Position numbers and translations under genes: made by a program
DNA from: Escherichia phage moskry
Sequence record: MN850651.1
Direction: 5' to 3' (one strand)
DNA length: 64,000 nt
Shown: in pieces, positions 1,482-10,786 of the stretch
Numbering within the stretch: the first letter of the stretch is position 1
How the letters are laid out: every line of letters starts with the position of its first letter
The notes under the pieces: generated by a model
What the model saw: the letters and a program-made list of their open reading frames with translations, nothing else
Database searches by the model: none
Told to the model about the DNA's origin: nothing

Positions 1482-2030
1482 TTAACGAGCCCATTTAATG
1501 ATTTCTGTAATCAAATAATTACGTTCGCTTGCATTAAATCCTATAACTTTGTTAGCACCATCATGATTAAGTAATTGATACGTTTGGATTTTGTTATGAA
1601 TTGCAAACTCTTCAAAATATGAAATGACTGTATTAAAACCGAATGAAGACAAAGTAATAAGGTCGTCTTCAAAACTTTCAGTCATTTCGTTACGTGTTAA
1701 AATAATTGTGAACACATCATGGTTTTGGCAAAGACGAACATAATCCTGTTCATAAACATCAAGAACCGAGTCCGCATCTTGTCGAATACGTCCATAAACC
1801 CAGTTACTAATATATCCACGGTCTAACAGATAAATCTTAGTAGGGTCTAAATAATTCAACATCGTTTCGAAACAGCCGACTTCATTTCGAGACTTAACAT
1901 CGAAACGCCCATCAACTGTTCGTTTAGGGAAATCAATCTTTACATATCTTTCACTAATTTCCATTATGTCATTAATGAAAGTTGTTTTACCAGCATTATC
2001 CGGCCCGTCTACTAAAATAATTTTAGCCAT
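1482..2030 (-). CDS. P-loop nucleoside/nucleotide kinase-like protein (dNK/dNMP-kinase fold), unknown substrate
   Basis: 182 aa; Walker A VDGPDNAGKTTF; LDRGYISNW resembles the ERS/DRS motif of deoxynucleoside kinases; distinct from gp1. Confidence 0.55.
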   Translation of the reverse strand: MAKIILVDGPDNAGKTTFINDIMEISERYVKIDFPKRTVDGRFDVKSRNEVGCFETMLNYLDPTKIYLLDRGYISNWVYGRIRQDADSVLDVYEQDYVRLCQNHDVFTIILTRNEMTESFEDDLITLSSFGFNTVISYFEEFAIHNKIQTYQLLNHDGANKVIGFNASERNYLITEIIKWAR

Positions 2031-2031
2031 T

Positions 2032-2931
2032 TTATTCCTCGATTACGACATCTTCGTATTTAGGTATATTATACGGTGAAGAAATTAAAGCATTAAAGTA
2101 GATGAACTCACCAAGACCTGGATGGAATACTTCTTCAGGATTTTCGAAATATTGAATCTTCGGACGTCCTTTAAGAATTTGATAGTACTCAGTTTTAGTT
2201 GGATTAAAAATTCGAATCAGCGCTTCTTCAGGATACTTATTTCTGTCGAAGCTATTATTTGGATCGGTTATATAAAGCGGTTGACCTAATTGAATTGCGC
2301 ATTCAACCACTTGTTCAAAACGATAACACGGGTCACTAATTCGAAATGGATGAAAAATACCATCTAGATGAATAGGAGCCAAATCACCTACAAGACGCTG
2401 CATGATGGAAGGACGTATAACTTTCTGAGTTACGATAATCTTATTACCATCTGCACCTGCGTTAACCAGCACTTCTTTTTGACGTTCATTCAACACAGTA
2501 GTTTGAAGTGAACTATTAACTGACAACATATCGGTTTTTAAGAATTCGTCAATATAAAAACGTGGTTTATTAGGGTCTGCCGTGATATTGAAATTGAATT
2601 CTACATCAAAAGCGCCGTCATAACCAGTGATATCTGTTATTAGAAAATCACAATCATAATAAGCAATTAATGAATCAACCACAAATTCATTTTCAGACCA
2701 GAAATATTTACGAGTGTTATACGCGTTATCTTTATACCATAATGGAACAAACTTAAATTCCGGGAAAAGACGTTCACATTCTTTAATATCAGATGCATTA
2801 CGTGGATATGTAATCACATCACCTGGATTAGCACGGTGCAAATGAAGTTGGAAGTTGCCATCCTTAAGGATAGCATACTGTCCAGTTTCATAAGACCGCA
2901 TACTCAAAATAGGTACGCGGAAAATAGCCAT
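2032..2931 (-). CDS. Hypothetical protein in the T4 beta-gt position; candidate DNA sugar transferase
   Basis: 299 aa ORF, stop/start abutting gene 42 homolog; no resemblance to recalled T4 beta-gt. Confidence 0.55.
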   Translation of the reverse strand: MAIFRVPILSMRSYETGQYAILKDGNFQLHLHRANPGDVITYPRNASDIKECERLFPEFKFVPLWYKDNAYNTRKYFWSENEFVVDSLIAYYDCDFLITDITGYDGAFDVEFNFNITADPNKPRFYIDEFLKTDMLSVNSSLQTTVLNERQKEVLVNAGADGNKIIVTQKVIRPSIMQRLVGDLAPIHLDGIFHPFRISDPCYRFEQVVECAIQLGQPLYITDPNNSFDRNKYPEEALIRIFNPTKTEYYQILKGRPKIQYFENPEEVFHPGLGEFIYFNALISSPYNIPKYEDVVIEE

Positions 2932-3647
2932 TAGTCAAGAAATCCTTTAACATAATCAAAATCACGTTCAAACACATGGGCACTTACCATGGTATGAGTA
3001 TAATCACCAACTTCTACACCACATTCGTTAGCGATATAATGAAGTAATTTTCCTTGGAGATAAAAATCCAACTGCATAACAACAGCACAGTTCTGAGAAC
3101 GCATATGACAGTGGGTATAAAGCTTACCATCACGAATATAATAAGTCACTGAGTCAGTACATGGATATTCAAGTGTTTCGTCCGAATCAAGCAAAGCCTG
3201 ATCAGAACTTTCTAGAATTTGGAACACAACTCTTCGAGAGTTAGGTTTCTCTTTAAGTTCTTTTAGAAGAGCCGGTAATTGGGCCGCAATGCGAGGACCG
3301 TAGAAAGTGTTGAAGTTTGCAGGCAAAGCGTCTGATTTAGGTTTAGAAATAAATTTAGCGACATTAGGATATGCCTTAAACGCTTCTTCTGCATCAGTAC
3401 CACCAGAAATCATAAACTTCCAGAAGTCTTCGGCATATTCATAAGAGATGCGGTTAATACGTGGGTCGGTCATTTTGAATGATGATGGATTGTCAACAAC
3501 TACTGTCATGGACCCGATTTCATTACAACGTCCAATACGAGAATTAGTTACGAATTCGGGGTTTTCTAAAATTTCACGATTGACTGCTTTAAATGCGGTT
3601 TGAAAATCTGCGGCTTTGATATATTTCATTGTGTTATGTTTTCCCAT
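2931..3647 (-). CDS. 42: dCMP hydroxymethylase-like enzyme (thymidylate synthase superfamily)
   Basis: 238 aa; catalytic Cys context YPCTDSVTYYIRDGK and HMRSQN parallel T4 gp42 CTNTVQYLIRDKK / NMRSND. Confidence 0.75.
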   Translation of the reverse strand: MGKHNTMKYIKAADFQTAFKAVNREILENPEFVTNSRIGRCNEIGSMTVVVDNPSSFKMTDPRINRISYEYAEDFWKFMISGGTDAEEAFKAYPNVAKFISKPKSDALPANFNTFYGPRIAAQLPALLKELKEKPNSRRVVFQILESSDQALLDSDETLEYPCTDSVTYYIRDGKLYTHCHMRSQNCAVVMQLDFYLQGKLLHYIANECGVEVGDYTHTMVSAHVFERDFDYVKGFLD

Positions 3648-3689
3648 GTTTACCTCAATACAATTTATTATATACTCAATTCGTAAAGC

Positions 3690-3929
3690 TTATTTGAATT
3701 TCTTAGCAATGTTGATATAACGTAAAGCTTCAGAATCTATACTTCCAAGAACACTATGAAGGAATGCATCAGCGTAGTATTCTAGTTGAACAGGTTCTTT
3801 AATCGCTTTAGCCGCTTTAGTTTCAAACAGGCCCATAAGGGCCTTTTTAAGAATTTGTTCGTTGCTATTAATTTTTATGGTCAAAATCTCTTCATTAAGT
3901 TGGTGGTTAAAAGTTTTTCTAGAAATCAT
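3690..3929 (-). CDS. Small hypothetical protein
   Basis: 79 aa ORF co-directional within the modification block. Confidence 0.45.
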   Translation of the reverse strand: MISRKTFNHQLNEEILTIKINSNEQILKKALMGLFETKAAKAIKEPVQLEYYADAFLHSVLGSIDSEALRYINIAKKFK

Positions 3930-5104
3930 TCCGGGTACCTCAAAGCGTCGTCAGAGTTAGTTATATCAATAATAGATATAGAATTTTCTGATAACCCATT
4001 TTTAGATAACTGGCGTTTATAATATCTTTCACAATATGTACACGTCGTCCCGCAGATTTCATTAGCACAATCGAAATCTGGATGTCTGAACCACCTTTTT
4101 TCTAAAAAGCCGTCTAACAAAGAGGTTTCAATATTTACCGTATGTGAAAACTCGGTCTCATTTTCAAGAGTGAAAATGGTCTCTAAAGGCTTCCACAATT
4201 CCAACAAATTACCTTCAAACTTTTCAGAAGCATAAGCTTCAAGAACTTTCAAAATGTAGTCGGTGCTACCTGTACGTCCCGAAACTTTAAATTGAGTGAT
4301 ACCAATATCGTTATAAAGTTTCAAATCTTGGGGACGAACAAAACGAGTTCTCAACCAGTTAAATGGGTCTGTATCACGAGCTTTAATACAGTGCTGCATA
4401 GGATATCCGTTTAAGGATTTAGCATCATCAGCCGTAACATCAGTACTATGGAAAATATAGCAAGAGTCACGATAGCTACAATGTGTTGTATACCCTTTAC
4501 CAGCATTAGAACAGAACTCATTTACAAGAACTTCAAATATTATATTGTTCTTATTGCAAAACTCTGCTGCACGCTTCAGGAAAGAAACTGAACGGTTCTT
4601 ATGAATTCCACAGCAGACCTTTTTGATATTATATTGGTCATGCAAGTATTTGATTTGAGTTACAGCATCGACATGTAGAATTGTTGAAACTTCAATCTCA
4701 ATGTCTTTATTGACTTCACGAACAATTTCCATAACAACAGGGTTAGCGATAGTAATACGCCATACGCCTATTGACCAAAGATACTGAACATAATCCTGAA
4801 TAGCTTTCTTCTTCCACTCAACTAGTTCTCTTTTTGAACCAGGATTTATCGTGTTGAGTGTATAGTTAAAGCAAATACCTAATTCGTTACAACGTTTAAC
4901 GTAGTCTTCTAACATCTTTTTGTCAACGTCAGGAAGCCTAAAATCAGGTCTGGCTGCTACAAAAGCCATTTCTCTTGTAGAGCCGTATACTTCGTTTATC
5001 AAGCTATTAGGATAAGTTTTATTGAGCTCTACGATTTTATCAAGAAGAGCTAAATCAAAATTCGTTCCGATTTTAAAAGTATTCATTTTTTTTTTGCATC
5101 TCAC
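3926..5104 (-). CDS. Hypothetical protein with C-terminal Cys cluster; candidate sugar transferase or accessory enzyme
   Basis: 392 aa; C-terminal CANEICGTTCTYCERYY; no family recognised by eye. Confidence 0.55.
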   Translation of the reverse strand: MRCKKKMNTFKIGTNFDLALLDKIVELNKTYPNSLINEVYGSTREMAFVAARPDFRLPDVDKKMLEDYVKRCNELGICFNYTLNTINPGSKRELVEWKKKAIQDYVQYLWSIGVWRITIANPVVMEIVREVNKDIEIEVSTILHVDAVTQIKYLHDQYNIKKVCCGIHKNRSVSFLKRAAEFCNKNNIIFEVLVNEFCSNAGKGYTTHCSYRDSCYIFHSTDVTADDAKSLNGYPMQHCIKARDTDPFNWLRTRFVRPQDLKLYNDIGITQFKVSGRTGSTDYILKVLEAYASEKFEGNLLELWKPLETIFTLENETEFSHTVNIETSLLDGFLEKRWFRHPDFDCANEICGTTCTYCERYYKRQLSKNGLSENSISIIDITNSDDALRYPE

Positions 5105-5145
5105 GTTAATTGATGCGATGGTTTTTGCAGGTCTTACTTAAATTA

Positions 5146-5547
5146 TTATAGATTAGGTTTATATGATTTAAATGTTTCGAATTCGCCTTTATTCATAAGA
5201 GCTTTGAATTCGTCAGGACGCATAGCTTTGTCGTCGATAATCCAATCATATACTGGTTTATGTGTTAGCAAATTATGGTACTTCAAGCCAATGTTTGCTA
5301 AGTTCTGAATCAGACTTGGGAGAATGTCAATTGCTATACGACCAGGACCTACTGACTTCATACCGCGAGCAGTGTAAAGCGTTATGGTATGCCCTGCATC
5401 ATACAGGGCATTAATGGCAGACACCATTTCGACGTCTGGTTTGAAGTTCACGTAATCACGATTGTTATTCCACTCTGTTATACAATCATCGACATCAAAA
5501 CAAAGATTAAGCATGTTTTCTACACGGTGCATTAGATTCGTTCCCAT
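5146..5547 (-). CDS. HAD-superfamily-like small phosphatase (putative sugar-phosphate phosphatase)
   Basis: 133 aa; motif-I-like FDVDDCIT, motif-II-like ITLYTARG, Lys and IIDDK downstream. Confidence 0.5.
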   Translation of the reverse strand: MGTNLMHRVENMLNLCFDVDDCITEWNNNRDYVNFKPDVEMVSAINALYDAGHTITLYTARGMKSVGPGRIAIDILPSLIQNLANIGLKYHNLLTHKPVYDWIIDDKAMRPDEFKALMNKGEFETFKSYKPNL

Positions 5548-7217
5548 TGATGAGTGATATCGCCACCAATTGGGCGATAAGAAACACCAGTTTCTTTATC
5601 AGTTAGTACCCATTTACCAGGATTTTTTGTAATCAGAGTAGCCGTTACAGGTTCTGCTACGTCATAACTAATAGAGCCGTCTTGAAGTACACGGCCCATG
5701 TTACGTAATTGCTTAGTCAGAAGTTCCATACCTTTATAATATGCAGCTACCGCTTTAAGTGGATTATTCTTGAAATAACCACCTAATGCAATCCAGATAA
5801 TTGCCACTGCCAAATGATGATACTCGTTAAACGAACTCATCTTTCCATATTTGTAAACTAATGGATTGATGTTAATAGTCACATTACAAGTTGTTTCATC
5901 AATAGTAAACTGTCCCCAGGTCGGATTAGCGTTGAATTCATCATAACCTGAAACAGCATAAAGCACTTTAGCTTCATCGTACAATTTTGGCCCGTAAATC
6001 TTGGTTTCCCCAAAATATCCACGAGGGTCGATAAACTTGACTTCGCCGTTATCAGTAATCATAGTATTACTGAAGTTCGGGTCACCATGAATAACAGAGT
6101 ACTGTCCCTGAGAACGGTTATGATAACGAATAAGGTGTTCTAAAGCTTGTTTCAGCATTGGCTTCAGACGCCCAATCTTAGTGTAGTTCACATGGGTGAT
6201 TTTACCAAATGAATCAATCAATGGTTGAATGCTTTCACAACGATCAATAACTTTCGTATAGAATTCTTTAGTGAAATCACGGCGAACAGTTTCAGGACTT
6301 ACAAAATAAGTGTCTGTGCTGAATTTCAGTGCATCTAAAATTGCATCAACAATTTGTGGACGAGCAAGACTTGATTTGGATTTAATATATTCAAATGCCG
6401 GCTTACCTTTAATGCGTTCCATTTCAAAGTTATTTTCATTAACAGAAACTAACTGAGGAACTGAATCTGATTTCACTTTAAGATACCATGAAATCTCATC
6501 TTTCTGAAGAGCTCGACCCTGTTCGGTTAATGCGAATTTAGTTACAGTTTCTTCACCAATTTCAACTGCATTAAAACTACGATTAAGTTCACGAACTTCA
6601 TGAGCTTTTTCAAGTTTAGGCATATCACCTAAATCAATTAGATTCATAAGCTCTGATTTATTGAATGCGCTGCCGTAAAGGAATTCTACGAAATCGCGTC
6701 CTTTGCAGTATTCATGAATTTCCTCATCGGTAGAACCCATATAGAATTCCCAGTCTTTGAACTGATAAATTCCTACAACATTACCACCTGTTGAACCTAC
6801 GTTAGTGATATTTTCACCGTCGAAATTATATCGACATTCGTCACCCTTAACATAGATTGCGTTAACATTCCAAGACCATGAACCAAAATCGGGAATAATA
6901 TCACACCAGTTAACAATTACATTATGGCCGTCTAAATCTTTGTGTAATTTAGCAAGAGCATAAGCAGAACCGTACGCTTCATCAACTGTACGAATAGTCA
7001 CATTGAACCCTTCTTGCTCACAATAAGCTCGAACAGTTTCAGCAAATTTTGAATGAACTACTACAATAATTTCATCTGCGCCAAGGTCAGAATAAATTGT
7101 ATACAAATTGCTCAGAATAGTGTCTTGTTTATAGTTAACAAGCACCTTAGGAATATGATGCGTTATTGGATATAAACGAGTCGCCAGTCCAGCACCAAGA
7201 ATAACAGCTTTTTTCAT
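5532..7217 (-). CDS. Bifunctional sugar-1-phosphate nucleotidyltransferase (N-term) / APH-choline-kinase-fold anomeric sugar kinase (C-term)
   Basis: 561 aa; N-term AVILGAGLATRLYPIT..PK (RmlA/GalU-type); C-term VIHGDPNFSNTM and FIDPRG (kinase catalytic loop). Confidence 0.7.
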   Translation of the reverse strand: MKKAVILGAGLATRLYPITHHIPKVLVNYKQDTILSNLYTIYSDLGADEIIVVVHSKFAETVRAYCEQEGFNVTIRTVDEAYGSAYALAKLHKDLDGHNVIVNWCDIIPDFGSWSWNVNAIYVKGDECRYNFDGENITNVGSTGGNVVGIYQFKDWEFYMGSTDEEIHEYCKGRDFVEFLYGSAFNKSELMNLIDLGDMPKLEKAHEVRELNRSFNAVEIGEETVTKFALTEQGRALQKDEISWYLKVKSDSVPQLVSVNENNFEMERIKGKPAFEYIKSKSSLARPQIVDAILDALKFSTDTYFVSPETVRRDFTKEFYTKVIDRCESIQPLIDSFGKITHVNYTKIGRLKPMLKQALEHLIRYHNRSQGQYSVIHGDPNFSNTMITDNGEVKFIDPRGYFGETKIYGPKLYDEAKVLYAVSGYDEFNANPTWGQFTIDETTCNVTININPLVYKYGKMSSFNEYHHLAVAIIWIALGGYFKNNPLKAVAAYYKGMELLTKQLRNMGRVLQDGSISYDVAEPVTATLITKNPGKWVLTDKETGVSYRPIGGDITHQWERI

Positions 7218-7258
7218 GTTGAAGTCCTCATTGGTAAGTAGGAGTATTGTACACTATT

Positions 7259-7402
7259 CTAGTTAAAGCATTCATACTTTGCTTGTAGTCCAATCATAAT
7301 CCATCCAATTACAAGTGTTGGAATCATTACTGGAGCCGTTAAGCTCCAGTAGATAGTCATGACAAGCATCAATAGTAAAAGTCCTATTGTTATTGCTTTC
7401 AT
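7259..7402 (-). CDS. Small hydrophobic membrane protein (47 aa) in imm-equivalent position
   Basis: ATG overlaps upstream stop (ATGA); MKAITIGLLLLMLVMTIYWSLTAPVMIPTLVIGWIMIGLQAKYECFN; below ORF-track size cutoff. Confidence 0.4.
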   Translation of the reverse strand: MKAITIGLLLLMLVMTIYWSLTAPVMIPTLVIGWIMIGLQAKYECFN

Positions 7403-8034
7403 TGTTCGCCTCGTAACATGGCACCTAGTGCACCGCCTGGATGGAACTTAAGGAAGTCATTAGAGGTAAATCCACGCTCAGACGAAAGGTTGATAGCGAA
7501 CGTATCGATAAGCGCTAACAACAATGTAGTGGACATAGTCGGAGCTAAAGAGTTCTCGTCAACTTCTACCGCGATACCGGTACAGAACGTATAATCAAAA
7601 AGAGCTTCGTATTCTTGTGGAATGTCAGGGTTACAATGCAACAGAATCTGTTTGACGTTCGGGCGAATCATTTTAAGATGCTTAGCCACGCCTATCATTT
7701 CTTCAGTTTTACCAGAACGACTAATATGAATCAACACATCATTAGGCGCAATGAATCCTGCATCACCGTGAGAATAATGCCCAGTGTTCAAGTACATACT
7801 AGGGATACCGAGTGAAGCAAATGTCTCAGAAGCTTTAGTTGCAATATTAGCATTCTTACCAACACCTGTAATAATTACTCGGCTTTCATAATTACTAAGT
7901 CCCGGGCGTCGAAGAGTTTCTAGAATAGCATTATAACGAGCAGGGTTTTGACTAATTACTTTGGCCATAGCGGCCAAAGAAGAAGCTTGTTTTATGATTG
8001 CGTCAATAGCGATAGTAATAGGAGTAGTTTTCAT
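7399..8034 (-). CDS. SIS-domain sugar-phosphate isomerase, KdsD/GutQ-type arabinose-5-phosphate isomerase-like (no CBS domains)
   Basis: 211 aa; GVGKNANIATKASETFASLG..HGDAGFI..ISRSGKTEE..LAPTMSTT..FHPGGALG parallels E. coli KdsD SIS domain. Confidence 0.75.
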   Translation of the reverse strand: MKTTPITIAIDAIIKQASSLAAMAKVISQNPARYNAILETLRRPGLSNYESRVIITGVGKNANIATKASETFASLGIPSMYLNTGHYSHGDAGFIAPNDVLIHISRSGKTEEMIGVAKHLKMIRPNVKQILLHCNPDIPQEYEALFDYTFCTGIAVEVDENSLAPTMSTTLLLALIDTFAINLSSERGFTSNDFLKFHPGGALGAMLRGEQ

Positions 8035-8074
8035 ATTTCTCTCATTTAATTAGTTTACCGTCCATGTCATTATA

Positions 8075-10786
8075 TCAAAAATCGAACATATCGAACAGAG
8101 ATGCTTTCTTCTCGTAATCGAGTTTCGCCGCTGATGTGAATCCTTCAAGTGGTTTAATAAATGTCTTCTCAAGGAGAACCGTGTAGTCCATCCAATGAAG
8201 TACATCATCTTTGATTAAATCAGTGATTTCAGTACCAGAAGGCCATGCGATACATTTATCACCGAATGGGTTTCCTTCACGTAAAGGCAGAACATATACT
8301 TTTTCACCTTCTACAACTTGTGGTGCATCGATATTACCTTTGATAGCCCGGTTATACGTCAGAATTCCACGAATATGGAACGGGCATTTAGGACCAGGGA
8401 ATCCACCTACATCATATTTAGCAATGTTATTCGCAGAAGATACCGACGCGATGCTAATATAATTCAATTGACGGAATTCTTTTTCAAACTCTTTAAAATA
8501 TTCTTGTAATGATTCTTCACCTTCTTGAAGCATACGACGAATACATTCCTTAAGAGCTTTCTGTACTGCTTTAGGGGTTGAAGATTTCTGTGTTTCGAGA
8601 CCCATGATTTTAAGCTTAGGTTCAGCGTATCTAGTTCCTTCCATATCCCACACGTTTAATGCATAACGTTTCTTACCAGTCCAAAATCCACCAATACCTT
8701 TAGAACCAAGCGGAGGTCCAGCGATAGCTTCTCGGTCCATGAACATCAAATGTTGCTTATTATTCATGTATTCGCACATTTCACGGAAACCTCTATCAAT
8801 AGCAGGTTCCATACGTTCACGAGCGAACTTATCTAAGAAGTCTACCCAATGGTTAGTATCGCGGAATTTAGATTCACCAACCTTATCAATAATTTTATCT
8901 GCAGATACGTAAATGGAGTCTGTATCACCATATAGAACGAAAGCTTCACCTTCTGTACCACAAACTTCATTCAGATATTCATTAACTTTACGTTCAATCC
9001 ACTGTAAAGCCATTTGACCAAATGTTGTGATTGCAGTAGCATTACGCAAATCGTAATAACGGAACCAAACGTTGCCAAGTGCACCATAAAGTGAGTTGAT
9101 AAGCAATTTACGGTTAATTTGGGCAGTCATACCTGCAACTTCAGTACGTTGAGCTCTAAACAACATTTCATTAAGAGATTTAGCAGACAACTTTTTAATC
9201 TTTTCTTTAATCTCATCGCTAAAGTCGAAACGATAATCAACATCTAATGGTTCGTCAACAGAAAGATTAGGATTATGCAACGCCTCTTTAATTATTTCAC
9301 CATTACGTTGAGCCGCAAGCATATAACCTTTATGTTCTTTACGTTGATTAAAGACTTTAGTGATTTCAGTTGGAACTACACCATCACGGTCTTTATAATA
9401 CATCATGCCGTTAGGAGAGCAACTGTACACATCAGAAGGACGTTCAGCAACAGCGTTAATATAATCATGCAATGGAGCTACTTTAAACGTTCCTGCTATT
9501 GTTTCTGGGCTAATATTCACTTGGCGAATAATACTTGGATACAGAGATGTAAGGTCGAAACTCATTACATATTTGTATCGATTTGGAATAGGTTCCTTAA
9601 CAAAAGCGCCAGGATAAGGTTGAACTGGATGCGAACGACCTTGTGGAATCACCTTGTTCTGCTCTTTAAGGCTATTGAAAATAATAGCGTCCCAAGTTTT
9701 AATTGGACTGAACACAGATTGAATCTGAATTTTAGCATAATACCCCATGTCCAAACTCAAGTTAATGAACTGGCGTTTAGCATCAATTTGCAATACACGA
9801 TACACGTCGATAATGTTATAAGAAATATATCGTTGGTGATTGCTTTCACGAAGCTTAGAAATAGGGCCGTCATATTTCAGTTTACCAACGTTCAATTCAA
9901 ATTCTGAAATGTAATCCAGAGAATATGACGGTTGGTTCGTGAAAGAGAACTTTTTGTAAAGGTCAATGTAATCAAGAACAGAGATACCGAACAATGTAAT
10001 GATTTCACGAGAACCATACATGTTTTCGATAACTTTAACACGAGTTTTACGATGTGGTGATAAACGTTTCGCAGTAGATTCGCCAAAAATATTCTTGATT
10101 CGGTTATACACATATGGAATATCAAATGACTCAACGTTCCATCCAGTCAAAATGACAGGAGTTTTCTGTTGCCAGAAGTTGAGATATTCCATCAATAATT
10201 CTTTTTCATTATCAAACGGCATATAAACGATTTTGTCGATAATTTCGGATGGAACTTCATCACCACCTTGTTCTTGAAGCTTAGCTGCAATTTCGATAGA
10301 CCATTCTTCTACATTACCATATGGAGAATTCAATAGATCAAATACGTAGAACCTGTCGTCAATTGAGTCATAATGGGTGATGGCATCAATTGGATGTTTT
10401 GCTTGTGACGGCTCAGGGAACCCATCCGGAGATGTTACTTCGATGTCGAAGTTAGCCACACGAATTTTTGTATGGTCGTATTTGATTTCATAGTTATAAG
10501 TGTCAGACAAATACGCCAATTTGAAATCGTCCATGCCAAGTGCTTCAAGTCCGATATCTTCCATGCGTTTAATCCATTGGGAGGCATCACGCATATTAGC
10601 GAACAACTTACGAGTACACGGCTTACCGTAGATATCGAAATATTTCGTAGCCTGACTTTCTGGACAATGAGCAAACAGTGATGGTTTATATTCTACTTCA
10701 CGAGTACGTTCACGGCCATTAGAATCGATGTAACGTTCAAAAATTGAATCACCAATCTGTTCAACCGTTAAGTAAAATTCTTTCAT
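8075..10786 (-). CDS. 43: DNA polymerase (family B), gp43
   Basis: 903 aa; MKEFYLTVEQIGDSIFERYIDSNGRER..., exonuclease and polymerase motifs (YGDTDS); N-terminus matches recalled RB69 gp43. Confidence 0.97.
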   Translation of the reverse strand: MKEFYLTVEQIGDSIFERYIDSNGRERTREVEYKPSLFAHCPESQATKYFDIYGKPCTRKLFANMRDASQWIKRMEDIGLEALGMDDFKLAYLSDTYNYEIKYDHTKIRVANFDIEVTSPDGFPEPSQAKHPIDAITHYDSIDDRFYVFDLLNSPYGNVEEWSIEIAAKLQEQGGDEVPSEIIDKIVYMPFDNEKELLMEYLNFWQQKTPVILTGWNVESFDIPYVYNRIKNIFGESTAKRLSPHRKTRVKVIENMYGSREIITLFGISVLDYIDLYKKFSFTNQPSYSLDYISEFELNVGKLKYDGPISKLRESNHQRYISYNIIDVYRVLQIDAKRQFINLSLDMGYYAKIQIQSVFSPIKTWDAIIFNSLKEQNKVIPQGRSHPVQPYPGAFVKEPIPNRYKYVMSFDLTSLYPSIIRQVNISPETIAGTFKVAPLHDYINAVAERPSDVYSCSPNGMMYYKDRDGVVPTEITKVFNQRKEHKGYMLAAQRNGEIIKEALHNPNLSVDEPLDVDYRFDFSDEIKEKIKKLSAKSLNEMLFRAQRTEVAGMTAQINRKLLINSLYGALGNVWFRYYDLRNATAITTFGQMALQWIERKVNEYLNEVCGTEGEAFVLYGDTDSIYVSADKIIDKVGESKFRDTNHWVDFLDKFARERMEPAIDRGFREMCEYMNNKQHLMFMDREAIAGPPLGSKGIGGFWTGKKRYALNVWDMEGTRYAEPKLKIMGLETQKSSTPKAVQKALKECIRRMLQEGEESLQEYFKEFEKEFRQLNYISIASVSSANNIAKYDVGGFPGPKCPFHIRGILTYNRAIKGNIDAPQVVEGEKVYVLPLREGNPFGDKCIAWPSGTEITDLIKDDVLHWMDYTVLLEKTFIKPLEGFTSAAKLDYEKKASLFDMFDF

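Follow-up and report, generated by a model that had tools for sequence, protein, structure and literature searches.

A phage-encoded gene cassette for predicted UDP-D-arabinofuranose synthesis in Escherichia phage moskry, and a neighbouring U32-family gene as a candidate pyrimidine hydroxylase

Escherichia phage moskry is an RB69-like Mosigvirus, and the stretch of its genome analysed here (MN850651.1; 64,000 nucleotides, hereafter the window) carries a cassette of three metabolic genes beside the gene for DNA polymerase gp43. These genes very probably form the phage's own route from D-ribulose-5-phosphate (Ru5P) to uridine diphosphate (UDP)-D-arabinofuranose, a sugar nucleotide used for the decoration of phage DNA. 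The original prediction, made from the sequence alone, had pointed to three co-directional, tightly packed genes at this site, and all three open reading frames (ORFs) are indeed present on the minus strand. They are listed below together with a small ORF that accompanies them:

7399..8034, minus strand: SIS protein, 211 amino acids, predicted arabinose-5-phosphate isomerase lacking CBS domains; corresponds to RB69 gp55
7259..7402, minus strand: hydrophobic, membrane-like ORF, 47 amino acids; corresponds to RB69 ORF054c
5532..7217, minus strand: nucleotidyltransferase-kinase fusion, 561 amino acids; corresponds to RB69 gp52:53, counterpart of AfhE from phage HY126
5146..5547, minus strand: small cap-less HAD phosphatase, 133 amino acids; corresponds to RB69 gp51, counterpart of HY126 AfhF

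The stop codon of the fusion gene and the codon for Met6 of the HAD protein overlap by one base (TAATG), and the start codon of the 47-residue ORF overlaps the stop codon of the SIS gene. Met6, at position 5532, is the likelier true start of the HAD protein, because the RB69 annotation and the Protein Data Bank (PDB) construct 9iqw both start there.

The SIS protein matches the Pfam SIS family (1.7e-10) and retrieves arabinose-5-phosphate isomerases (APIs) from the PDB, namely 3etn (5.5e-25), 5uqi (6.4e-23) and 2xhz, the E. coli KdsD (6.5e-19). In NCBIfam, it matches KpsF/GutQ (TIGR00393; 2.2e-32, 112.7 bits) and KdsD (1.2e-30, 107 bits), both under the respective full-length cutoffs of 203.7 and 505 bits. 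It is 36% identical to the SIS domain of E. coli KdsD, and its residues K60, H89, E112, E157 and H198 align with K59, H88, E111, E152 and H193 of that enzyme, which we take to be the catalytic or substrate-binding residues. All five are invariant in an alignment of the SIS protein, KdsD and three phage homologs. Tandem CBS domains are absent: aligned with E. coli KdsD, the phage protein comes to its end at residue 211, just at the beginning of the region that holds the CBS pair. These features match the single-domain API subtype represented by 3etn and 5uqi, and the predicted reaction is the interconversion of Ru5P and arabinose-5-phosphate (Ara5P). The SIS fold, the catalytic Lys/His/Glu/Glu/His set and the predicted reaction are shared with KdsD and GutQ as well as with the single-domain APIs (3etn from B. 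fragilis; 5uqi); the phage protein resembles the latter in lacking the CBS domains that KdsD and GutQ carry. Whereas those enzymes serve 3-deoxy-D-manno-octulosonate (Kdo) or capsule synthesis, the phage isomerase would serve a DNA modification pathway.

The fusion protein combines a sugar-1-phosphate nucleotidyltransferase (residues ~1-200) with a predicted sugar kinase of the APH/ELK fold (residues ~210-510), and is 99.6% identical to RB69 gp52:53 after correction of the known frameshift error in the RB69 sequence. Its N-terminus matches Pfam NTP_transferase (8.5e-10), and a family profile of the transferase half finds HddC (2.2e-12) and LicC (2.9e-11) in the PDB. Across 19 homologs (29-73% identity), G10, R14, L15, K24 and D106 are invariant in the transferase half, as are K227, E241, H377-G-D379..N384 and D397, the ELK/APH catalytic set, in the kinase half. 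Pfam APH is matched by 5 of the 19 family members (best 5.6e-9), the kinase matches of the window protein itself being sub-threshold. Foldseek searches with an AlphaFold2 model of the fusion (predicted local distance difference test, pLDDT, 90; predicted template modelling score, pTM, 0.88) returned MurU (4y7u; 1.3e-8), RmlA, GMPP, HddC and LicC for the transferase half and APH(2'')-IIa (3ham; 5.3e-8) for the kinase half. The model and the conserved motifs support an assignment as an RmlA/MurU-type nucleotidyltransferase joined to a putative APH-fold sugar kinase. For the two halves, the best fold matches are MurU, which acts with AmgK in the salvage of UDP-N-acetylmuramic acid (UDP-MurNAc), and the APH fold of 3ham, a fold that AmgK shares with further anomeric kinases. 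Unlike MurU and AmgK, the phage protein unites both activities in one chain, and the reported substrate of its kinase is a sugar 5-phosphate, whereas AmgK-type kinases use the free sugar. The gene occurs in 373 phage records, 57 of them from Acinetobacter phages, and some GenBank records label its product 'putative enzyme involved in UDP-arabinose biosynthesis'. Its probable orthology to AfhE runs through RB69 gp52:53, which Lee 2026 (PMC13326640) equates with AfhE, and through the neighbouring proteins, which are identical to PDB 9iqw or ~98% identical to 9iqc. In Thanatos, the homolog TH1_060 is required for propagation, and phage growth is lost when the gene is deleted (PMC12838424).

The HAD protein and PDB entry 9iqw have the same sequence over residues 5-133 (129 residues; 7.8e-88). 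It also aligns with 1xpj (5.2e-10) with the motif residues kept, and its translation contains FDVDDC (DxD of motif I, with D18 and D20), TLYTARG (Thr of motif II) and IIDDKA (acidic pair of motif IV). It matches phrog_1238 (5e-43) and, at 49.3 bits against a cutoff of 162, the capsule biosynthesis phosphatase family TIGR01689 (4.3e-13); no Pfam family was found at E<=0.01. The protein is a divergent cap-less HAD that is recognised mainly via 1xpj and 9iqw. What the analysis shows directly is the anatomy of the genes, the folds, the catalytic residues and the identity to proteins already published or crystallised. On the nature of the three proteins the original prediction fared well. It had named a KdsD/GutQ-like SIS protein without the CBS pair, in line with the API structures and the five conserved KdsD positions; a HAD-like phosphatase at 5146..5547, in line with 9iqw and the HAD motifs; and a fusion of an RmlA-type nucleotidyltransferase with an APH-fold kinase, in line with the invariant motifs, the AlphaFold2 model and the Foldseek matches.

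The three-gene UDP-arabinose system is itself already known and published, and there is little new in the pathway. Arabinose on RB69 DNA was described by Thomas 2018 (PMC6024577), who proposed ORF055c and ORF53_52c, in the same module, as UDP-arabinose genes and explained the ORF052c/ORF053c split in RB69 by a one-base sequencing error. Lee 2026 (NAR; PMC13326640) reported that RB69 DNA contains mono- and di-arabinosyl 5-hydroxycytosine, joined by an ether link, and not hydroxymethylcytosine (hmC), and that RB69 gp48, a flavin-associated thymidylate synthase (TS) homolog, makes 5-hydroxy-deoxycytidine monophosphate (5-hydroxy-dCMP) with oxygen from O2. In the same account, Ru5P is converted to arabinofuranose-5-phosphate (Araf5P) by gp55, then to arabinofuranose-1,5-bisphosphate (Araf-1,5-P2) by the gp52:53 kinase, to Araf-1-P by gp51 and to UDP-arabinofuranose (UDP-Araf) by the gp52:53 transferase. 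Proof in vitro comes from AfhE and AfhF of phage HY126 (He 2026, as cited in Lee 2026), AfhE being described there as Ara5P 1-kinase and UDP-Araf pyrophosphorylase and AfhF as Ara-1,5-bisphosphate 5-phosphatase. Lee 2026 further names Serratia phage LC53 as bearing arabinosylated 5-hydroxydeoxycytidine (5hodC), and the DNA of Mosigvirus NP contains 5-ara-dC and 5-ara-ara-dC (PMC13390438).

The window carries the same genes in the same order as the RB69 gp55/gp52:53/gp51 set and the HY126 Afh pathway, with the same predicted product, UDP-Araf, and the same use, arabinosyl-5-hydroxycytosine DNA. There is no difference of substance; only the splits of the 561- and 299-residue ORFs in the RB69 GenBank record set the two apart. 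The TS homolog (2931..3647; Pfam Thymidylat_synt, 2.3e-15) is ~98% identical to PDB entries 9iqc, 9ir2 and 9iqu. For the base chemistry, the activity of the hydroxylase, the order via the bisphosphate and the UDP carrier we rely on published work with near-identical or homologous proteins, and we infer that phage moskry behaves like RB69 and HY126. Phage-made UDP-arabinofuranose that decorates 5-hydroxycytosine DNA and so evades restriction and CRISPR is a published conclusion, here independently re-derived.

Measured against this literature, other parts of the original prediction need revision. The system it called uncharacterised had been nominated in 2018, has biochemistry for HY126 AfhE and AfhF according to Lee 2026, and is represented by PDB structures that are identical or ~98% identical to two of the cassette proteins. 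Arabinosyl-hmC, which it gave for RB69, is in fact arabinosyl-5-hydroxycytosine with an ether link (Lee 2026). An activated arabinose destined for DNA cytosines was correctly foreseen as the end product (Lee 2026), but not the step order, which it ran through free arabinose; the order given in Lee 2026 leads from Ara5P to Ara-1,5-bisphosphate, Ara-1-P and UDP-Araf. Of the position it gave, between genes 42 and 43, the gp43 side stands, since gp43 adjoins the cassette, whereas the supposed gene 42 homolog is the flavin- and O2-dependent 5-hydroxy-dCMP synthase.

In the route that we propose for phage moskry, the CBS-less SIS isomerase would convert host D-ribulose-5-phosphate to Ara5P, and the C-terminal APH-fold kinase of the fusion would add a phosphate at C1 to give arabinofuranose-1,5-bisphosphate. 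The small HAD phosphatase would then strip the 5-phosphate, leaving Araf-1-P, which the N-terminal MurU/RmlA-type nucleotidyltransferase would join with UTP to form UDP-Araf. The bisphosphate order is chemically sensible, because the 5-phosphate would hold the arabinose in its furanose form. UDP-Araf would be spent by phage glycosyltransferases (GTs), the 299-residue GT (2032..2931) and a second GT encoded outside the window, which would place one or two arabinoses on 5-hydroxycytosine in the phage DNA. The 5-hydroxy-dCMP would be supplied by the adjacent TS-fold enzyme.

A different order of the same steps, in the manner of FKP or of AmgK and MurU, would have the HAD phosphatase act first, releasing free D-arabinose from Ara5P, before the kinase phosphorylates C1 and the transferase forms a nucleoside diphosphate (NDP)-arabinose. 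We regard this order as very unlikely. In its favour, the APH-fold kinase is similar to anomeric kinases with free sugars as substrates, and the transferase half is similar to MurU, the partner of a kinase, AmgK, that uses free MurNAc. Free arabinose, however, would go mostly to the pyranose form, yet the product is a furanoside. Moreover, the set of an SIS isomerase, a kinase/transferase and a HAD phosphatase copies the logic of the adenosine diphosphate (ADP)-heptose pathway, in which GmhA (SIS isomerase), HldE (kinase/transferase) and GmhB (HAD phosphatase) pass through a bisphosphate: isomerisation is followed by C1 phosphorylation, removal of the distal phosphate and nucleotidylation of the sugar-1-phosphate. 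That pathway is an analogue of which the phage cassette is not a member, since it handles a C7 heptose on an ADP carrier, whereas the phage product is a C5 arabinofuranose on UDP, and HldE pairs a ribokinase-type kinase with a cytidylyltransferase-type transferase, whereas the phage fusion pairs an APH/ELK kinase with an RmlA/MurU-type transferase. The literature speaks on both sides: Table 1 of Lee 2026 (PMC13326640) still words the steps via free arabinose, whereas its text has AfhE as an Ara5P kinase and AfhF acting on Araf-1,5-P2.

Even less probable, in our judgement hardly to be expected, is that the sugar nucleotide serves a purpose other than DNA, be it a boost to host Kdo, lipopolysaccharide or capsule synthesis via Ara5P or the glycosylation of virion proteins. 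Database names lean that way (KpsF/GutQ, the EcbF-BcbF capsule phosphatase and the title of 9iqw, 'Capsule biosynthesis protein'), and homologs in giant viruses may serve capsid-fibril glycans. Against this, every T4-like locus embeds the cassette with the genes for a 5-hydroxy-dCMP synthase, a nucleotide kinase and a candidate DNA GT, chemical analysis has found arabinose on RB69 and Mosigvirus NP DNA, and no gene for a Kdo8P synthase or CMP-Kdo synthetase lies near the cassette.

Further points, along with the wording of that Table 1, weigh against a bisphosphate route to UDP-Araf as the function of the cassette. Both the bisphosphate order and the UDP carrier rest on the secondary account of He 2026 in Lee 2026, and it is from entry names and sequence identity that we infer PDB 9iqw, 9iqc, 9ir2 and 9iqu to stem from the HY126 work. 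The kinase-half assignment depends on structure prediction and conserved motifs; a sequence profile of this half found nothing in the PDB beyond RIO2, at an E-value of 0.08. Pyrophosphorylase activity of TH1_060 with xylose-1-phosphate was undetected (PMC12838424), though this sugar may be the wrong substrate.

The cassette is part of a longer minus-strand block, flanked on one side by the DNA polymerase gene and reaching on the other to the TS homolog and beyond, which corresponds to RB69 ORF045c-055c. Its order is gp43, SIS, 47-residue ORF, nucleotidyltransferase-kinase fusion, HAD, U32, 79-residue ORF, TS homolog, GT, thymidylate-kinase-like (Tmk-like) kinase and UvsX. The members not listed above are:

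8075..10786, minus strand: DNA polymerase gp43, flanking the cassette at the SIS side
3926..5104, minus strand: U32-family iron-sulfur (Fe-S) protein, Pfam Peptidase_U32; corresponds to RB69 gp50
3690..3929, minus strand: 79-residue ORF (orf79), phrog_8601; corresponds to RB69 ORF049c
2931..3647, minus strand: TS-fold 5-hydroxy-dCMP synthase, flavin- and O2-dependent according to RB69 gp48 data; corresponds to RB69 gp48
2032..2931, minus strand: GT-B-like candidate for DNA arabinosyltransferase 1 (Lee 2026, Table 1), 299 amino acids; corresponds to RB69 gp46:47
1482..2030, minus strand: Tmk-like nucleotide kinase, 182 amino acids; corresponds to RB69 gp45, annotated 'thymidylate kinase'

Base composition is even throughout the block. 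Nucleotide identity across positions 3600..8100 reaches 99.3% with Escherichia phage ECO26.1 3-1 and 97.7% with RB69, and more than 150 near-full-length matches to this segment occur in Mosigvirus genomes. In the RB69 record, the nucleotidyltransferase-kinase gene is split into ORF052c and ORF053c and the GT gene into ORF046c and ORF047c. Both are intact in the window (561 and 299 residues), in keeping with the literature, which treats the RB69 splits as sequencing errors.

Placed between the isomerase and fusion genes, inside the sugar-nucleotide operon, the 47-residue ORF encodes a membrane-like peptide. It matches phrog_3610 (6.8e-27), and its ortholog in Klebsiella phage KLB31, 64% identical, is annotated with a transmembrane domain. 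In distant phages, the SIS, nucleotidyltransferase-kinase and GT genes stay together, and there are Rosetta-stone fusions of ~900 residues that hold the HAD, SIS, nucleotidyltransferase and kinase domains in one polypeptide. One of these, P0084 (926 residues; loci L003-L005), has the domain order HAD-SIS-nucleotidyltransferase-kinase in a single chain. The P0084 contigs carry genes for RNA polymerase subunits and a MutS-HNH gene and are giant-virus-like, and a homolog, P0091, is found in a eukaryotic transcriptome. The domain content suggests that a complete route from Ru5P to an NDP-pentose may be fused in some eukaryotic viruses.

The gene next to the cassette, for the U32-family protein, provides the one new lead. 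Lee 2026 (PMC13326640) lists RB69 gp50 as a 'sugar or heterocycle reductase' and does not discuss it, and no role is assigned to the phage U32 gene in the accessible literature. We tentatively propose that the protein could be an Fe-S, prephenate-dependent and O2-independent pyrimidine C5 hydroxylase, a proposal to which we give somewhat under an even chance of proving correct and, at the same time, unreported so far. Together with its coupled 79-residue partner, and in most related phages with a chorismate mutase (CM), it would produce 5-hydroxy-deoxycytidylate or hydroxylate DNA without O2. RB69-like phages would then possess dual routes to the same base, an aerobic one through the flavin- and O2-dependent TS-fold enzyme and an anaerobic one through U32 and prephenate. 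Such aerobic/anaerobic pairs have parallels in TrhO/TrhP, UbiIHF/UbiUV and the NrdAB/NrdDG of T4. Many uncultured phages have kinase-GT-U32 trios without a TS-type gene in the vicinity, and in these U32 would act as the sole hydroxylase.

The window protein matches Pfam Peptidase_U32 (PF01136; 7.7e-11, 42.2 bits against a cutoff of 22.4), and the top PDB fold match of its AlphaFold2 model (pLDDT 83.7) is a U32 protein, 5d88 (2.1e-7); no PDB sequence relative was found at E<=1. In alignment, C209 and C215 coincide with the first two cysteines of the motif in UbiU, RlhA and TrhP, and ten cysteines are invariant across 16 phage U32 homologs, including C198, C239 and a C-terminal CX4CX3CX2C motif. 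According to the literature on the family (PMC10990095 and others), RlhA is needed for ho5C2501 in 23S rRNA, TrhP for ho5U34 in tRNA, and UbiU with UbiV for O2-independent ubiquinone hydroxylation. PMC10990095 gives prephenate as the oxygen donor shown for UbiU-V and proposed for the whole U32 family, and a four-Cys [4Fe-4S] motif as common to most members. The phage protein has the U32 TIM-barrel core in common with RlhA, TrhP and UbiU/UbiV, and C5 hydroxylation of pyrimidines, for which RlhA and TrhP are required, is the chemistry that the cassette needs. It differs from them in that identity is limited to 16-21%, in the absence of the U32 C-terminal domain and in its other invariant cysteines. 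Its substrate would be a deoxynucleotide or DNA, unlike the rRNA and tRNA substrates of RlhA and TrhP.

The true start of U32 is likely the ATG at ~5086, ahead of which lies an A-run. A scan for promoters and terminators gave counts not above shuffled expectation. A sigma-70-like match (10/12; TTTAAA-16-TATAAT) lies on the minus strand at 5172..5145, in the 3' end of the HAD gene and just upstream of U32; it is only a hint of possible separate transcription of U32 and orf79.

U32 is found in 221 phage records, with Acinetobacter not among the host genera listed. Its orthologs in Straboviridae of Klebsiella, Enterobacter, Serratia, Proteus, Yersinia, Providencia, Edwardsiella and Shewanella are 80-89% identical, a conservation that exceeds that of the nucleotidyltransferase-kinase across comparable phages (42-73%). 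The next tier of relatives (37-58% identical) is found on contigs of uncultured phages of up to 466 kb, and a cellular origin of those with 50-58% identity was rejected, since they sit on phage and huge-phage contigs. For neighbourhood comparisons, we assembled 50 U32 loci (45 from IMG/VR and five others), with ±8 kb of flank for most and ±7-10 kb for three; 3-deoxy-D-arabino-heptulosonate-7-phosphate (DAHP) synthase and CM calls come from non-iterated searches, as iterated profiles were cross-contaminated through DAHP synthase-CM fusions. In these loci, U32 is accompanied by the Tmk-like kinase in 39/50, by a homolog of the 299-residue GT in 37/50, by the nucleotidyltransferase-kinase in 29/50 and by the SIS gene in 23/50, and six divergent loci consist of tight, overlapping trios in the order Tmk, GT, U32. 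Of the 50 loci, only the 16 of T-even type carry the RB69-type TS enzyme. The one 'TS' match among the 34 divergent loci (L030) turned out to be a canonical ThyA and not an RB69-type hydroxylase. A scan of viral contigs for RB69-type TS found 24 loci, none on a divergent U32 contig, a weak negative given that it used two peptide patterns only.

The link to prephenate comes from the neighbouring genes. Across ~74 phage loci, U32 is linked to CM and/or DAHP synthase genes. In KLB31, the 79-residue gene coupled to U32 is a Pfam-valid CM (CM_2; 38.5 bits against a cutoff of 27). Such a CM separates U32 from the TS gene in 48 phage records that span 11 or more host genera and include Serratia phage LC53, and Pfam-valid CM_2 genes stand beside U32 in 14 of the 16 T-even-type loci. 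The phage CMs keep the positions of R11, R28, K39, S84 and Q88 of the E. coli enzyme (EcCM), presumably its catalytic residues. In seven divergent loci, U32 also has neighbours of this kind: four carry a fusion of DAHP synthase and CM immediately upstream (L040, L041, L043 and L045), two carry DAHP synthase alone (L009 and L028) and one carries CM alone (L047). An alternative identity of the DAHP_synth_1 neighbour in L009 as KdsA (Kdo8P synthase), which would have made a connection to Ara5P, was rejected, its NCBIfam matches being 2.6e-70 for DAHP synthase and 2.9e-17 for Kdo8P synthase. Among 24 loci with the RB69-type TS, 15 have U32, and a CM and/or the 79-residue gene is present in 14 of these 15; the nine without U32 (JS98-like, Acj9 and PspYZU05-like) have neither (0/9). 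The presence of CM or orf79 tracks that of U32, so that U32 with CM or orf79 appears to behave as one insertable module.

Several observations temper the hydroxylase reading. The third and fourth canonical U32 cysteines find no aligned counterpart in the phage protein, JS98-like coliphages share the arabinose genes yet manage without U32, and the window itself contains no CM, orf79 belonging to a different family. Other possible roles for the protein are the modification of a sugar, the hydroxylation of RNA or the protease activity of its annotation, but none of them explains the linkage to CM and DAHP synthase. If prephenate-dependent pyrimidine hydroxylation is correct, it would account for the ability of gut phages to form an O2-requiring DNA modification in the absence of oxygen, and U32 would be the first member of its family to hydroxylate in DNA or deoxynucleotide metabolism. 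Phage CM and DAHP synthase genes would gain a rationale as suppliers of the oxygen donor, and many uncultured and huge phages would be flagged as likely carriers of glycosylated hydroxypyrimidine DNA.

The 79-residue ORF is translationally coupled to U32 (GAATGA) and always found beside it. It belongs to a tiny family with the conserved motif YY-DAF-HS..G...E..R; in some Mosigvirus genomes the match is broken into two pieces or covers just a part of the ORF. As its positional equivalent in KLB31 is a CM_2 protein, we considered orf79 as a CM and rejected this: there was no CM_2 match in Pfam even at E<=10 and no BLASTP similarity to phage CM, the hhalign probability was 0.2%, and the columns of the AroQ catalytic Arg/Arg/Lys/Ser/Gln are not conserved. 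That Yersinia and Pectobacterium phages hold orf79 and a CM side by side also counts against this identity.

In huge phages, the neighbours of U32 include genes for a dCMP deaminase, a thymidylate-kinase-like protein, a uracil-DNA glycosylase (UDG)-like protein and a DnaE-type polymerase. Two loci, L006 (466 kb) and L007 (60 kb), share a succession of a Thymidylate_kin protein, a UDG-like domain, a dCMP deaminase, U32 and a conserved protein of ~250 residues that matches no family. In L007, the UDG-like domain is fused to a DnaE-type PolIII alpha subunit. The gene content of these two loci is a hint that huge phages may modify their DNA with a hydroxypyrimidine, perhaps one derived from uracil and not from cytosine.

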